Part shown: piece by piece, positions 2,178 through 47,035 of the stretch
How positions within the stretch are numbered: position 1 is the first letter of the stretch
How the letters are laid out: every line of letters begins with the position of its first letter
IMG/VR virus record: IMGVR_UViG_3300040801_002121
From: a virus
DNA: 64,000 bases
Direction: 5' to 3' (one strand)
The notes under the pieces: model-generated
Seen by the model: the letters and a program-made list of their open reading frames with translations, nothing else
What the model was told of the DNA's origin: nothing
The model's database searches: none
Program-made: the position numbers and the translations under genes

Positions 2178-3020
2178 ATGCAAGTTCAAAATCACCGTCT
2201 TCGTGGCATTCCATACATCGAGTCACCAAATCGTTCTGGGTTCATGACGCCCACGGTAGCTCTCATGCACTACACGGCCGGTTACACCGCTCGCAGCGCA
2301 ATCGCCACGCTGACTAACCGCCGCCGCAAGGCATCTGCCCATCTCGTGATCGATACTGATGGTTCGATTACACAACTTGTGCCTTTCAATCGCGTTGCAT
2401 GGCACGCCGGTCGTTCATCCTTCATGGGCCGCCGTGGTGTGAACAATTTCTCGATCGGCTTTGAGTTCGTCAATCCCGGTTTCTTCAAGGAGGTCAACGG
2501 AGGTTACCAAGATGCTTACGGAACGCGCCTTTCGGATCGTCGCTTGTCGCAGTTTCAGCTTACGAATCGAGGACCGGTAAGTCGTCTGGGTTCCGGCACG
2601 TTTGTTTGGCCTGCTTACACGGATGCCCAGATTAACGCAGGGCTTGCGGCTTTTGACGCAATCGTCGATGCGTATCCATCGATCCGACACGTGACCGGAC
2701 ACGAGGATGTGGACCTGCGAGGCTGGAAGAGTGATCCGGGCCCGGCCTTCCCGATGGGTGAGTTCGAAGACGTTCTGCTTTACGATTCCGGTCCGATGCG
2801 TGACACTGACCGTGCCGATGGCCTCGAACCAGTTCGTGAGCGGCGCACCGTCGATGTTGGTCGCCTAAACGTCCGCGATAAGCCGAGCATTCGAGGACGC
2901 ATACTGACCACGCTTTCAGGAGGGTCCGAAGTGATTATTCTTGAAGACACCGGCAAATGGAGCCGGGTCGAATACGCTCCCGGTCTCGAAGGCTGGTTGG
3001 CGGATGGATACCTCGCCTAA
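2178..3020 (+). CDS. endolysin: N-acetylmuramoyl-L-alanine amidase (Amidase_2/PGRP fold) with SH3b-like C-terminal domain
   Basis: AAGGA RBS 8 nt upstream. Motifs AHLVIDTDGSITQLVPFNRVAWHAG, GFEFVNPGF, VTGHEDV. C-terminus GKWSRVEYAPGLEGWLADGYL. Confidence 0.85.
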   Translation: MQVQNHRLRGIPYIESPNRSGFMTPTVALMHYTAGYTARSAIATLTNRRRKASAHLVIDTDGSITQLVPFNRVAWHAGRSSFMGRRGVNNFSIGFEFVNPGFFKEVNGGYQDAYGTRLSDRRLSQFQLTNRGPVSRLGSGTFVWPAYTDAQINAGLAAFDAIVDAYPSIRHVTGHEDVDLRGWKSDPGPAFPMGEFEDVLLYDSGPMRDTDRADGLEPVRERRTVDVGRLNVRDKPSIRGRILTTLSGGSEVIILEDTGKWSRVEYAPGLEGWLADGYLA

Positions 3021-3031
3021 GGAGATACGAC

Positions 3032-3493
3032 ATGGCCATTGGCATCGCAGAGATTCCATTCCTCCTCAAGGTCAAGAGCTTCTTTGGGAAGCTCTTTTCC
3101 AGTCCTTGGTTTTACGCCATCTTGGCTTTTGCCGCTATCGCGGTAGGCACTGGGTGGTATCTCAAGAACGATAAAGCCGAAGCGGTCGAACAAGCCACTG
3201 AACAAGCTTTCGAACAAGCTGGGCAGGAAGCGACAGTCAAGTCGCTCGAAGCCCAGACGACAACGCAGGAGCGAACTCAAACAATCGATCGCGACTTCAC
3301 GGACCTCCGCGAGCAAACTACAGAGGATTTTACCAATGTCCGAAACAAAATCGACACTGCCCCGGTGGAAGCGAGGGACGCTCCTGCTCCTCGGCTCCTT
3401 ATCGATACTCTCAATGAGCTTGACCGGTTGCGGCAGGAGCGCTCCCGAGCCGCTGAGGATCGAGTTCCTGACGCCAAAAATTCCTCTGGATGA
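3032..3493 (+). CDS. i-spanin (Rz-like inner-membrane spanin subunit)
   Basis: ATG 3032 sits behind AAGGAG (3019-3024). N-terminal TM helix WFYAILAFAAIAVGTGWYL is followed by a charged coiled-coil region. Lies immediately after the endolysin. Confidence 0.65.
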   Translation: MAIGIAEIPFLLKVKSFFGKLFSSPWFYAILAFAAIAVGTGWYLKNDKAEAVEQATEQAFEQAGQEATVKSLEAQTTTQERTQTIDRDFTDLREQTTEDFTNVRNKIDTAPVEARDAPAPRLLIDTLNELDRLRQERSRAAEDRVPDAKNSSG

Positions 3494-3692
3494 ATTGATC
3501 TGCATGGATGCACCGGCCGGGCAACTGCCAAGCGATGCTTCCAATGCACAAGTCGCTCAACGCGTCACGGGAATTGATGAGGCCGGTGAGGATTGCCGTC
3601 AACGCCTCAACCGCGCTCGCATGAAAATCAAAACATTCAACGAAGTCGTTGCCGAGATCAACGCAGCTAACGAAAGAGCCCGACAAGAATGA
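3336..3692 (+). CDS. o-spanin (Rz1-like outer-membrane lipoprotein), overlapped architecture
   Basis: Starts in another frame inside the i-spanin gene and runs past its stop. Signal peptide ends in lipobox LTG|C (Cys32). Stop overlaps the thyX start (ATGA). Confidence 0.7.
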   Translation: MSETKSTLPRWKRGTLLLLGSLSILSMSLTGCGRSAPEPLRIEFLTPKIPLDELICMDAPAGQLPSDASNAQVAQRVTGIDEAGEDCRQRLNRARMKIKTFNEVVAEINAANERARQE

Positions 3693-38506: not shown

Positions 38507-39004
38507 ATGACTACGCCGAAAAAGACTACCACCAGCACTCGGAAAGCCGGGACCGCAAAGAAAACACCGACTCGCCGGACCGATCCGTATCGCGACCAGC
38601 AGGGTCAGCAGATCGACGAAGGCGGCACCGCTGGCGTTCCGATCATGATGCTCGAACACGTCGAACCGACATTCTCCGGCCGCACGCCTAAGCCGGAAGA
38701 GTATCCGTTCTCCAAGCTGGAGCACTCGAAGAAGGTCGAAGGCAAGCTTGTGGGCCCCTCGTTCTTCATCCCCAACTCGGCCAAGCCGGAGACCGTGCTG
38801 GCGCGTTACCGCAAGCGCTGGAACGGTTACGACGGTAAGGAATATCGCAAGTTCCAGTCGCACGCCAATACGATGGAAATCGACGGCAAGATGGTGCAGG
38901 GCATGAGCGTCTGGCGCGCTACCAAGGAAGAGGAAGCCGCTGGCCGTGCTGATCTTGAAAAGCGGCTTGCTGCGAAAGCCAAGAAGCAGAAAGAGCCTGC
39001 ATAA
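38507..39004 (+). CDS. hypothetical basic protein
   Basis: AGGAGG RBS; K/T-rich N-terminus. Confidence 0.6.
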   Translation: MTTPKKTTTSTRKAGTAKKTPTRRTDPYRDQQGQQIDEGGTAGVPIMMLEHVEPTFSGRTPKPEEYPFSKLEHSKKVEGKLVGPSFFIPNSAKPETVLARYRKRWNGYDGKEYRKFQSHANTMEIDGKMVQGMSVWRATKEEEAAGRADLEKRLAAKAKKQKEPA

Positions 39005-39063
39005 AGAGCTTGCGAATCAGCGAGAGGGTCGCTAACACGATCCAACCACTCGTCAACCGACAG

Positions 39064-39099
39064 GCGGCCGTCATCGAAAGATGGCGGCCGTTGGTTTTT
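39064..39099 (+). terminator. rho-independent terminator
   Basis: Stem GCGGCCGTCAT/ATGGCGGCCG(T), then TTGGTTTTT. Confidence 0.7.
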
Positions 39100-39142
39100 A
39101 ACAAGGGTAGACAACTTTTTTCGCATCAGTGCAAATTAGTTG

Positions 39143-39171
39143 TTGACATAGAGGGCAAGTATCACTATACA
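39143..39171 (+). promoter_or_regulatory. promoter of the large non-coding RNA
   Basis: GCAAATTAGTTG-TTGACA (39143-39148), 17 nt, TATACA (39166-39171). Confidence 0.65.
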
Positions 39172-39738
39172 CCCTCTTCTCGACGCGATCGAGAGCTTAT
39201 TGAGAGGACTTCCGGCCAAGCGACGGTTTGGTTTGAGCGCCTGACGGGGCCAGTGAAGTAAACGGGGTCCTCACAGTAAGCTCTTGGAGCTACGAGATTC
39301 CCGCCTGAGGGAGATACGCACGGGCAACCGTGTTGAAAGAGGGTATGGCCACATAACCTCGCCAGTTTACGGATTGGTCAATTCAGGCAAGCGCAGCTTG
39401 ACCCGCGAGGGTCGTTCTATCCGCTGATCTCCTTCCAGAGGTCATGATAGGATAAGCTGGAAATCAGATGCAGGTCCCGAAGGGGATATGAATTGGGTAA
39501 CTCCGGATTCAGAAAGGGAGGCTTGGCGGCCTCCGCCTCATGCCAATCTGGTTGACAGGGGAAGCTAACGTGTAGGGCTCAGGTTCGAGGCTTAGCGGCC
39601 AAGGGCGGTGTCCAGTAGGAAGGGCGAAAGTCCTGACCGACCGTTCTATTAGCCTTAGCGGGTGAACGAATATGAGGTGTCTGACATTCCGTCGGTGGAA
39701 ACACTTATGGACTCAGGTGGCAGCACATCTCAGTGGCT

Positions 39739-39812
39739 TGCAATCTAGCATAATTGGTTAATGCAACTGACTCTTAATCAGTAGATTATTGGTTCAATCC
39801 CAATGATTTGTA
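39739..39812 (+). other. nested tRNA-Lys(CUU)-shaped module, AT-rich, defective acceptor stem, no CCA
   Basis: D arm GCAT/ATGC; anticodon arm ACTGA-CTCTTAA-TCAGT; T arm ATTGG-TTCAATC-CCAAT. Acceptor TGCAATC vs GATTTGT pairs at only 4 of 7 positions. 24/74 G+C. Confidence 0.55.
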
Positions 39813-40184
39813 AACGCAAAGATTGCCACGGCAGTGCGCCGAAAACGCCTAATGCTACCGGGGAAACCTAATGTAGCGCAAGCTGACCTCGCAAGGGAAA
39901 GCCTGTTTAGTGCAAGACGATTCGTTGGGGCTTAGCGGCTCCTTAATGGCGGGAAACCGTCAGCGGGAAGGAAAGCGCTGAAAAACGCACTGTGTCGCCG
40001 CAAACGCCAGCGGCCCCGTGAGAACCGGGAAAATTGGCGGCGTTGGTCGTAAACATGGGTAGCCGGTTTCCGGTCCTGTGTGGATAAGTCGGCAAGGTGG
40101 CCCGCAAGGTCATCGTAATCCGACGAATGGACGATCTGGCAAGGGCCTAATCTCAGCCCGCGCTACCACTGTTCAAGGTGGCTT

Positions 40185-40285
40185 ACAGGAACCATGGGGC
40201 GCATTAGGCCGATGCGTTTCCTTGGTGGAAGCCGGGCTTGCCATAGCCCGGTGGGAAGTTCGATCCCTCCGTCCATGGTTCCTGT
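40185..40285 (+). other. nested tRNA-like four-hairpin junction closed by a 13-bp helix
   Basis: ACAGGAACCATGG (40185-40197) pairs with CCATGGTTCCTGT (40273-40285). Inside are CGCAT/ATGCG, TTTC/GAAG, CGGGC/GCCCG hairpins and the T-arm look-alike GGAAG-TTCGATC-CCTCC. Confidence 0.55.
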
Positions 40286-40624
40286 AAATCACCCGTAACG
40301 CGGCCCCTCTTGCAGCAAAGCTGTTGGGCCTCACTAACCCGGCTCCGGACAGGCGAGAGAAGTAGTGACCTCCCGGCGACACGGTAAGCTTCGAGGTGCC
40401 ACGTTACAAGTGATGGTGCCCAAGGTCGGCGCAGCGGGGAGGTTTAGCTAACTTCCTTCACGTGCCCGCAGGCAAATACCGGTCCTAGTTGCTCGATCAC
40501 GCAGGCCGGATAATCTCCAGAGGCAGAAGCATCGAGCCGTCCATCTGGGGAATATGGGAAGCGCTGCAACTTGCTGCGTCGTCCTTGGCTACCAACTTAT
40601 TTTTGCCCTCAAGTCTTTTTTCTA

Positions 40625-40653
40625 TTGACAAGCCGACGCAGTTCGGTTATCAT
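40625..40653 (+). promoter_or_regulatory. promoter, first tRNA transcription unit
   Basis: TTGACA (40625-40630), 17 nt, TATCAT (40648-40653). Followed by the conserved TCAAGACGCGG..CCCGCAAA leader. Confidence 0.7.
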
Positions 40654-40705
40654 CAATGCCTCAAGACGCGGGATCGCCCGCAAAACACAGGATAACGAGT
40701 TTCAA

Positions 40706-40798
40706 ATGTTCAACGCATTCGCCATGAATAATATCGCACCGGTGGCCATTATGGTCCCAGCGATGGCGCGTGCGCTCGATGGAGGAACTACGTTCTAG
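40706..40798 (+). CDS. possible 30-aa peptide (MFNAFAMNNIAPVAIMVPAMARALDGGTTF)
   Basis: Short ORF between the conserved leader and a terminator. Weak RBS; may be non-coding. Confidence 0.3.
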   Translation: MFNAFAMNNIAPVAIMVPAMARALDGGTTF

Positions 40799-40828
40799 GC
40801 CGAACGTCCTCCAAAGCACAAGTTTACC

Positions 40829-40856
40829 AAGGCCTCCATTCGGGGGCCTTTTTCGT
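40829..40856 (+). terminator. hairpin + T-run
   Basis: AAGGCCTCC-ATTC-GGGGGCCTT then TTT. Confidence 0.55.
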
Positions 40857-40858
40857 TT

Positions 40859-40935
40859 CTGGGGTTAGCTCAGTCGGTAGAGCGCCCGGTTTGGGACCGG
40901 GAGGATCGGAGGTTCGAGCCCTCCACTCCAGACCA
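40859..40935 (+). tRNA. tRNA-Pro(TGG)
   Basis: Acceptor CTGGGGT/ACTCCAG (C1:G72); anticodon arm CCCGG-TTTGGGA-CCGGG; T arm GGAGG-TTCGAGC-CCTCC; A73; encoded CCA. Confidence 0.85.
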
Positions 40936-42407: not shown

Positions 42408-42483
42408 GGATCAGTAGCTCAGTAGGCAGAGCGACGGGCTCTTAACCCGTAGGTCGTGGGATCGTTTCCCACCTGATCCTCCA
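42408..42483 (+). tRNA. tRNA-Lys(CTT), T loop ATCGTTT (A54/U58 swap)
   Basis: Acceptor GGATCAG/CTGATCC; anticodon arm ACGGG-CTCTTAA-CCCGT; T arm GTGGG-ATCGTTT-CCCAC; CCA. Confidence 0.8.
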
Positions 42484-46423: not shown

Positions 46424-46501
46424 GCGGGCGTGGCGAAATTGGTAAACGCACGGGATTTAAGCTTCCGCAAACTGAGAGTTCGAGTCTCTCCGCCCGCACC
46501 A
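46424..46501 (+). tRNA. tRNA-Leu(TAA) with short (6-nt) variable region
   Basis: Acceptor GCGGGCG/CGCCCGC; Leu-type D loop AAATTGGTAAA; anticodon arm CGGGA-TTTAAGC-TTCCG; variable CAAACT; T arm GAGAG-TTCGAGT-CTCTC; A73; CCA. Confidence 0.78.
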
Positions 46502-46509
46502 TTTTCTGC

Positions 46510-46538
46510 TTGACAAATCCGAATCAGTCTGGCAGTAT
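46510..46538 (+). promoter_or_regulatory. promoter of the tmRNA transcription unit
   Basis: TTGACA (46510-46515), 17 nt, CAGTAT (46533-46538). Confidence 0.55.
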
Positions 46539-46544
46539 TCTCAC

Positions 46545-46930
46545 ATGATCGTAATTCGATCGACTGAATTTTGGTCTGGACGCGGGGGCAGAGCCCGCCA
46601 CCTCCACCATCTATTCTCGCAGGCGGTAAGTGTCCGAATGCGAAGCTCATGACCGGGGAGCAACAGGTTGTCCCGGCGCGATGCGAGGATAGTTGATGGG
46701 GGTGAATTTAGGATCGACAGGCCCGATGAAAGAAGAGCGCGATCAAGCTTGACCGACTTTAACAGGTCACCGCATGTAAATGCAATCGACAACGTAGTTG
46801 TCGCCAACGACAACGACGCCGAGGTTCGCCTCGCCGCCTGAGTTGGCAAAATCCCTGCGGCGATCAACTCCGTAGGTGGCGTATTGGCTCCACGTAGCAA
46901 CAGGACGGGCCAGTTAGTTTTATGGACCCT
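46545..46930 (+). ncRNA. ssrA: two-piece, circularly permuted tmRNA (acceptor piece ~46545-46609, coding piece from 46698; 3' end uncertain, may reach ~47030)
   Basis: Upstream T arm GCGGG-GGCAGAG-CCCGC plus CACCTCC-ACCA (46582-46609). Downstream GGGGGTG-AATTTAGGATCGACAGG (46698-) pairs perfectly with it, including G3:U70. Tag ORF GCC..TGA at 46803-46841 encodes ANDNDAEVRLAA. Confidence 0.8.
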
Positions 46931-47035
46931 GCACCGCTACGAGTATGTGCGAGAGTCACTACCAAGGGCCGGATCGCAACCGGTTCCAGTCGTGGCAAGG
47001 CATTTGTTTACGAATGGGGGTCCGCCAAGTTACCA

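Follow-up and report, generated by a model that had tools for sequence, protein, structure and literature searches.

What is encoded by a long stretch of phage DNA that has no credible protein-coding frame? The question is raised by positions 39143-40624 of IMG/VR virus record IMGVR_UViG_3300040801_002121, of which 64,000 nucleotides (nt) of one strand were analyzed (this whole stretch is called the window below). A preliminary description of the locus held that it is free of open reading frames (ORFs) and specifies one ornate, promoter-driven RNA of 1.4 kb, which would belong to the GOLLD or ROOL class or to a new class of large noncoding RNA. It is nearly certain that the locus encodes a GOLLD RNA (Rfam family RF02032), and the full explanation that best fits the evidence, namely a GOLLD RNA belonging to a CbK-like alphaproteobacterial siphophage that has Erythrobacter phages vB_EliS-L02 (L02 below) and XM05 as relatives, is given a probability of roughly 0.9. 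The locus is thus a further member of a known family, and its nearest orthologue has already been published. GOLLD with its leader extends over about 980 nt (39178-40159); the last ~460 nt of the locus are separate modules.

Identification and domain plan

When 38950-40900 was scanned with the models of all 4227 Rfam families (E<=10), GOLLD was the single large-RNA family matched. The match lies on the plus strand at 39672-40159, the universally conserved 3' domain of the RNA, and spans the complete model (positions 1-416 of 416) at 114.8 bits with an E-value of 5.6e-31. The preliminary description had proposed that other large-RNA models be tried as well, and in this interval, at the same threshold, there is no match to ROOL, HEARO, group I or group II introns, RNase P, or transfer-messenger RNA (tmRNA).

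The neighborhood of the locus is ~80% identical to that of L02, and XM05 is more distant. Both are ~150-kb CbK-like siphophages, and they carry the same RNA at the same position, unannotated, with GOLLD scores of 141.9 (L02) and 120.4 (XM05) bits. Further relatives, obtained by exact-pattern scans of IMG/VR, metagenomes, and genomes and then by nhmmer, add more two-domain members: loci L003, L005, L010, L028, L033, L034, and L011, plus five identical contigs (L006-L009, L040). In 10 related loci the two-domain RNA scores 120-172 bits, with 149-172 bits for the further clade relatives, and four of these (L003, L005, L010, and L028, 157.6-172.1 bits) lie above the Rfam cut-off of 150. Some pattern matches were discarded. 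Locus L004, an IMG/VR match to the 19-mer CAGGTTCGAGGCTTAGCGG, is a chance match within a tail-protein gene and has no GOLLD and no transfer RNA (tRNA); most metagenome and genome matches to AAACGCAAAGATTGCCAC are likewise due to chance, the RNA being carried only by L028, L033, L034, and L040.

The orthologue in L02 is already in the literature. The GOLLD alignment of Kretsch et al. (2025, Nature; Supplementary File 3) contains the row OL955261.1:69523-70013 from Erythrobacter phage vB_EliS-L02, and this interval (3049-3539 of locus L001) is the exact orthologue of window positions 39672-40159. Given this row, GOLLD in the CbK-like phage group is already on record; phiCbK-like Caulobacter phages, DSS3P8, and MD18 are also listed in the alignment. 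The L02 GenBank record and the L02 genome paper make no mention of a GOLLD RNA.

In published GOLLDs, a conserved 3' domain (P14-P27) is joined to a variable 5' domain of about 400 nt that lies just before it, and a tRNA may be present in the linker. The two-domain RNA self-assembles without protein into a closed dihedral cage of 12 to 14 subunits, with rings made of the 3' domains, caps made of the 5' domains, and linkers directed into the interior (Kretsch et al. 2025; PMC12990946); closed dihedral cages of 10 to 14 subunits are known for the env-38 and S. agalactiae GOLLDs. The RNA in the window has the same plan. Its 5' domain, delimited by nhmmer homologues and covariation, is a clade-specific variable domain at 39300-39671 (plus strand) with about 17 helices, and it is conserved in eight loci (by nhmmer, L001, L002, L003, L005, L010, L028, and L033 besides the window). 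No similarity to the 5' domains of phiCbK, DSS3P8, or MD18 is detectable when 39300-39671 is aligned to them, which fits the published plan of a conserved 3' and a variable 5' domain.

Covariation at syntenic loci, another check that had been suggested, supports both domains. There are compensatory changes in 48 of the 103 consensus pairs of the 5' domain, where 93.6% of the alignment cells are paired, compared with 36-48% when the partner strand is slid, and none of 500 shuffles reaches the observed value. In the 3' domain, RNAalifold applied to a nine-sequence alignment of the clade gives 143 pairs, 55 of them with compensatory changes. The features that had been singled out earlier also stand. 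All three hairpins with GAAA loops are present, one in the 5' domain (39622-39633) and two in the 3' domain (39694-39705 and 39948-39961), and the motif GSCTTAGCGG occurs three times in 64 kb (39589, 39652, and 39929), with 0.13 copies expected and no shuffle in 100 reaching three; the first two copies form YUUAGCGG hairpin loops of the 5' domain.

The limits of the locus were largely as first described. An intrinsic terminator of the upstream gene (ORF 38507-39004), found by the scanner on the plus strand at 39063-39099 as a 13-pair stem (39063-39092) followed by GGTTTTT, sets the 5' limit of the noncoding locus, and at the other end the scanner places the next promoter, TTGACA-17-TATCAT, at 40625-40653 (plus strand). 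The terminator scan of the window finds none between 39092 and 40829. Between these limits, a sigma-70-like promoter, TTGACA-17-TATACA, can be read directly from the plus strand at 39143-39171; the elements are exactly those first reported, and with 10 of 12 consensus positions the promoter is near-consensus rather than consensus. It is absent from the scanner list because its -10 hexamer ends in A, not T. Both hexamers are identical in L02 and the spacer between them has diverged. The predicted transcript would start near 39178 and would begin with a leader (39178-39299, plus strand) that forms a single long, stable, imperfect hairpin: the fold of 39172-39300 has -60.9 kcal/mol and a z score of -5.1, and none of 200 shuffles is as stable. 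This leader of ~120 nt is common only to the window and L02 and is absent in other members of the clade, and the alignments place the start of the conserved core near 39300.

What else might the locus be? That a new class of large noncoding RNA, or ROOL, takes the place of GOLLD is refuted: a score below the Rfam cut-off and a 5' domain unlike those of phiCbK, DSS3P8, and MD18 would suit such a proposal, but the match is full-length, near relatives exceed the cut-off, an orthologue has a row in the alignment of Kretsch et al., variability of the 5' domain is among the traits that define GOLLD, and no ROOL match is found at E<=10. The proposal that the region codes for one or more small proteins is strongly disfavored. 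Frames of 47-83 amino acids are indeed present on both strands, but in the ORF list from the terminator to the next promoter none exceeds 69 amino acids, and the longest overlap one another on opposite strands and run across covarying helices; moreover, substitutions show no 3-base periodicity in any of four pairwise comparisons with relatives (p 0.3-0.9), and within the two GOLLD domains only 0-1 of the 9-11 indels per comparison are divisible by three. The description of the locus as free of ORFs is confirmed, and the comparisons with its homologues give no coding signal.

It should be noted that several points weigh against the reading of the locus as a promoter-driven GOLLD. The score of 114.8 bits lies under the Rfam gathering score of 150; this is why the default scan of the window listed only tRNAs and tmRNA, and standard annotation would therefore miss this GOLLD. 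Covariation was counted over 8-9 related sequences and on structures predicted from the same alignments, and the counts therefore overstate independence. The -10 hexamer lacks the conserved final T, and XM05-type relatives do not have the promoter at 39143-39171; consequently, the 5' end of the RNA is not fixed. In the relatives, the promoter scan finds none in XM05 and only weak ones in L003, leaving the 5' end there unplaced. Finally, cage assembly, stoichiometry, and processing of the window RNA are all extrapolated from analogy with other GOLLDs.

Loops, linker, and linker tRNA

Within the 3' domain, the clade alignment permits individual elements to be compared with the solved structures. 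The tip of the first 3'-domain hairpin (39694-39705, plus strand), GGUG-GAAA-CACU, would correspond to L14. All eight clade members with the hairpin retain the L14 A-run, as GGAAAC in seven and as CAAAAG in L02, and the stem covaries. In the solved GOLLD cage, the L14 A-run forms the inter-subunit A-minor bridge B6 (Kretsch et al. 2025, supplementary text), and by analogy 39694-39705 may have the same three-dimensional role here. A second hairpin of the domain, GGCGG-GAAA-CCGTC (39948-39961, plus strand), is GNRA-capped, with GAAA, GAGA, or GUAA as its loop in 9/9 clade members and again with a covarying stem; GNRA loops of GOLLD serve in A-minor or tetraloop contacts.

A natural short variant of GOLLD was observed at 2610-3210 of locus L006, identical in L007, L008, L009, and L040. 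Here, ~180 nt from the start of the 5' domain run straight into the linker, with its tRNA, and the remainder of the 3' domain; the 5' domain lacks its second half, and most of the first 3' hairpin, that is, most of the L14 hairpin, is missing.

The third copy of GSCTTAGCGG (39929-39938, plus strand) also lies in a hairpin loop, GGGGC-UUAGCGG-CUCC, and this loop is dimorphic. It reads UUAGCGG in the window, L02, XM05, and L034 and CCGCAA(U/G) in L003, L005, L006, L010, and L028. The first form is identical to the two invariant 5'-domain loops, and the second is complementary to UU(A)GCGG. The loop may thus represent a kissing-loop contact that has been switched. No consistent covarying partner for it was found, and the candidates in the linker do not covary with it.

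The linker is closed by a pseudoknot helix that joins an internal loop of the first 3' hairpin to sequence 3' of the linker tRNA. Its strands on the plus strand are GTGGCAG (39717-39723) and TTGCCAC (39823-39829) in the window, and they covary: the corresponding strands are CTGGACCAG/CTGGTCCAG in phiCbK, CCGAGCCAG/CTGGCTCGG in MD18, and GGGTCAG/CTGACCC in a Mesorhizobium phage. Another candidate for a helix enclosing the tRNA, GCAATCT (39740-39746) with AGATTGC (39820-39826), was set aside, since it is the overlapping GTGGCAG/TTGCCAC helix that covaries. The two strands of this candidate are perfectly complementary and both are invariant in the clade, and GCAATCT is the 5' acceptor strand of the linker tRNA; their pairing may be secondary or coincidental, or it could be an alternative pairing.

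The tRNA module itself occupies 39739-39813 (plus strand) in the GOLLD linker (J13/15), where it is called as tRNA-Lys(CTT)-like by ARAGORN and scores 55.7 bits with the Rfam tRNA model. Its acceptor stem contains two mismatches, CCA is not encoded, and a better tRNA-Lys(CTT), at 68.2 bits, is found in the array at 42408-42483. Among nine relatives, the module is Lys-CTT in five, Glu-TTC with an aberrant arm in L02, Arg-TCT in L003, and Ile-TAT in L010, and in L034 there is no tRNA call. CCA is encoded in XM05, L005, and L006 and partially (CC at the printed end) in L028. This drift in anticodon and in acceptor quality argues that in some members the module is not kept for decoding. The broader claim, that the linker tRNA was never selected for decoding, is only partly supported. 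In the window phage, judging from the sequence, we infer that the module is kept as a part of the GOLLD linker and not as a needed decoder.

Between GOLLD and the tRNA array

GOLLD heads an island of 30 tRNAs and a tmRNA directly downstream, and before the array are further structured elements on the same strand. A short hairpin is followed by an element of 104 nt (40183-40286, plus strand) that folds as a tRNA-like five-way junction and lies outside GOLLD. Its closing helix pairs TTACAGGAACCATGG (40183-40197) with CCATGGTTCCTGTAA (40272-40286) over 15 complementary bases (16 pairs in the minimum free energy fold). The long-range helix had been reported as 13 base pairs (bp) within a single large RNA; it is real and does close four hairpins, but it is longer, was placed off by one, and lies beyond the end of GOLLD. 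The last of the four hairpins is a T-arm look-alike (GGGA-AGUUCGA-UCCC). The element is far more stable than shuffled sequence (-56.5 kcal/mol, z score -6.0), but it is not a recognizable tRNA: its fold has no 7-nt anticodon loop, ARAGORN makes no tRNA call at 40183-40286, and an Rfam search restricted to 281 nt of the tail of the locus gives nothing at E<=10, including tRNA, tmRNA, and tRNA-Sec. Consequently, of two nested tRNA-shaped modules noted earlier, the Lys-CTT module of the linker is recognized by both tools, whereas this one is tRNA-like only. The L02 and L005 counterparts have other sequences and are closed by stems of about 24 bp.

In architecture, the element resembles YrlA, a bacterial Y RNA (RF02553), in which a long stem between the two ends likewise carries at its tip a tRNA-like, multi-branched region with one arm that resembles a T-arm. 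The likeness is architectural only, however; no Ro-binding motif was identified, and the window has no YrlA match, whether in the scan of 38950-40900, in the 281-nt search, or anywhere in its tRNA island. Sub-threshold YrlA matches (37-46 bits, with a gathering score of 69) were seen inside the tRNA arrays of related phages, at L003 13792-13894, L005 11320-11420, L006 4752-4855, and L011 2088-2191. In phiCbK, an annotated tRNA-Cys of unusual length (89 nt; 101969-102057, or L064 1670-1758) lies ~230 nt 3' of GOLLD on the same strand, and it may be a counterpart of the long-stem tRNA-like element of the window.

Two bases after this element begins a structured module of 125 nt (40289-40413, plus strand). 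Its closing helix P1, of 12 bp, is formed by TCACCCGTAACG and CGTTACAAGTGA, and P2, of 7 bp, by GCCCCTC and GAGGTGC; inside are the hairpins GCAGC-AAA-GCTGT and CACTA...TAGTG. Within the module, GUAGUG is invariant, and the block AGCUUCGAG differs at one or two bases in L001, L003, and L010. The module is present in nine distinct loci, all of the L02/XM05-like Erythrobacter-phage clade. A covariance model, R1, was built from eight copies, and its E-values are rough; it finds the ninth copy, in L010, outside the training set at 74.8 bits, and it assigns the module to the plus strand (96.9 bits, versus 40.4 on the minus strand). In the model-based alignment, 96.1% of the cells are paired, compared with 32-49% for slid partners, eight pairs have compensatory changes, and none of 500 shuffles does as well. 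The module has no Rfam match at E<=10, neither nhmmer nor R1 finds it in phiCbK, DSS3P8, MD18, the Mesorhizobium phage, or L028, and a pattern scan of IMG/VR returned only loci already known. Three relatives have a weak second match to R1 (24-27 bits) at 110-300 nt 3' of the first (L011 1013-1154, L005 10337-10480, and L010 1688-1785), and these could be diverged paralogues; in the window, R1 finds no second copy.

The remainder, a spacer at 40414-40624 (plus strand) that reaches to the next promoter, is partially conserved with L02. It shares conserved blocks with L001 and contains one conserved hairpin at about 40436-40458, GGGAGGUU-UAGCUAA-CUUCCUU. As a whole, it folds no better than shuffled sequence (z scores -0.07 and +0.90).

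Given these elements, it could be postulated that the whole 1.45 kb is one ornate RNA, as first described, and that its last 460 nt extend GOLLD at the 3' end in this clade only, serving to decorate or load the cage. GOLLD and the module are on the same strand with no terminator from 39092 to 40829, and in this clade the module is always downstream of GOLLD. However, the two are not at a fixed distance: they are separated by 53 nt in XM05, by 87 nt in L003, and by as much as ~770 nt in L005, and the intervening inserts differ. The module is read as a separate element. In XM05, a terminator-like stem with UUUU follows directly after GOLLD, as read from the fold, although the scanner did not list it. 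Furthermore, phiCbK, DSS3P8, MD18, and the Mesorhizobium phage have GOLLD without the module, and the solved GOLLD RNAs stop at the end of the Rfam model. A single RNA of this length is thus quite improbable. The part of the original proposal that holds is the ~980 nt of GOLLD with its leader; the last ~460 nt are not found in other GOLLD-bearing phages.

A second possibility is that the tail (40160-40620) has no function in itself and is made up of spacer and the decayed remains of tRNA genes. Such decay would explain a tRNA-like element that cannot be recognized as a tRNA and a last 210 nt that fold like shuffled sequence, and it is in keeping with the content between GOLLD and the tRNA array, which is a mosaic that differs among relatives. 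Yet the closing helices of the 125-nt module have been kept through compensatory changes in nine loci, the tRNA-like element has the stability described above, and its L02 and L005 counterparts retain a long closing stem made of other sequences. Decay is consequently an unlikely account of the tail, and a GOLLD followed by separate structured modules is the preferred reading.

Farther downstream, the region 40625-40850 was found to have features of its own. Its conserved promoter, TTGACA-17-TATCAT, drives a conserved ORF of ~30 amino acids (40707-40799), MFNAFAMNNIAPVAIMVPAMARALDGGTTF, which is followed by a hairpin across the stop codon, an intrinsic terminator (40829-40850), and, immediately after, the tRNA array. 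Seven related loci encode MFNV(V/I)A(M/I)NNPA(A/V)PAIMVPV... The core of this conserved peptide is almost only Asn, Pro, Ala, Ile, Met, and Val, and the array opens with six tRNAs for Pro, Pro, Val, Ile, Ala, and Asn. The region folds with a z score of -4.1, and the CCUCC of the stop-codon hairpin could pair instead with the 3' arm of the terminator. It is possible that 40625-40850 is a leader-peptide transcription attenuator in front of the phage tRNA operon. At its far end, the island is closed by a two-piece (permuted) alphaproteobacterial tmRNA (46498-46932) with the tag peptide AIDNVVVANDNDAEVRLAA.

Possible function and comparison with known RNAs

A course of events can be proposed from these elements. 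Transcription would start at the promoter at 39143-39171, as its sequence suggests. Since no terminator follows GOLLD before 40829, the RNA is probably part of a longer precursor, from which GOLLD would then mature. The element at 40183-40286 is a likely processing site, either for RNase III acting on the long stem or for RNase P/Z acting on the tRNA mimic, and a cut there would free both the 3' end of GOLLD and the 5' end of the 125-nt module. If the published structures are a guide, the RNA would self-assemble as a closed cage of 12 to 14 subunits with the linker tRNA module inside.

We know of no established function for GOLLD. In other GOLLDs, expression is reported to rise during lytic growth of the phage. 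One speculative suggestion is that the cage acts in lytic growth within a phage program of translation support, to which the tRNA island and the tmRNA would belong; the cage might hold or mask the internal tRNA module, or it might engage ribosomes or tRNA-directed host factors. Equally tentative is the suggestion that the elements at 40183-40286 and 40289-40413 are undescribed phage small RNAs, cut from the GOLLD precursor and acting in concert with either GOLLD or the tRNA island. They might, for instance, be carried by the cage as cargo, assist it as a cofactor, or serve as a decoy that diverts tRNA-directed host factors.

Few natural RNAs are known to assemble into a closed, protein-free cage, and GOLLD is one of them. 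Alone, the copy in the window adds little, the GOLLD of CbK-like phages, including L02, being already in the published alignment, and Caulobacter with phiCbK is a better experimental system. Nevertheless, the locus makes it clear that genuine GOLLDs of this clade can fall below the Rfam cut-off (114.8 bits for the window and 120-142 bits for XM05 and L02), and the 5' domain of the clade now has an eight-sequence alignment supported by covariation. What is new is a clade-specific pair of structured modules after GOLLD that match no described family and that are possible processing signals or partners.

Among known RNAs, the GOLLD of L02 is the closest. It is the orthologous locus, with identities of about 81% in the 3' domain and 89% in the 5' domain, has the promoter hexamers and the leader in common with the window, and is likewise placed between a tyrosine-recombinase gene and the tRNA array. 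L02 is, however, a separate phage with a neighborhood about 80% identical; its linker tRNA is an aberrant Glu-TTC instead of Lys-CTT, its downstream tRNA-like element has another sequence, and its tail contains an extra insert of ~170 nt. ROOL is comparable as a large, ornate, phage-associated RNA that is found near tRNAs and forms RNA-only cages, but the window lacks a match to the ROOL model at E<=10.

More distant GOLLDs provide the remaining comparison. In a Mycolicibacterium tRNA array, a GOLLD is described as having tRNA-Phe in J13/15 (Morgado et al. 2020, as cited in PMC12990946), and the env-38 GOLLD, of 833 nt, forms a 14-mer cage (PDB 9MEE). The RNA in the window differs from these in a 5' domain that cannot be aligned to those of distant GOLLDs, in an extra leader of ~120 nt, and in an embedded tRNA that looks degraded. 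What the window RNA has in common with them is the conserved 3' domain joined to a variable 5' domain, a tRNA in the linker, a location at a tRNA array, and a core of about 860 nt.

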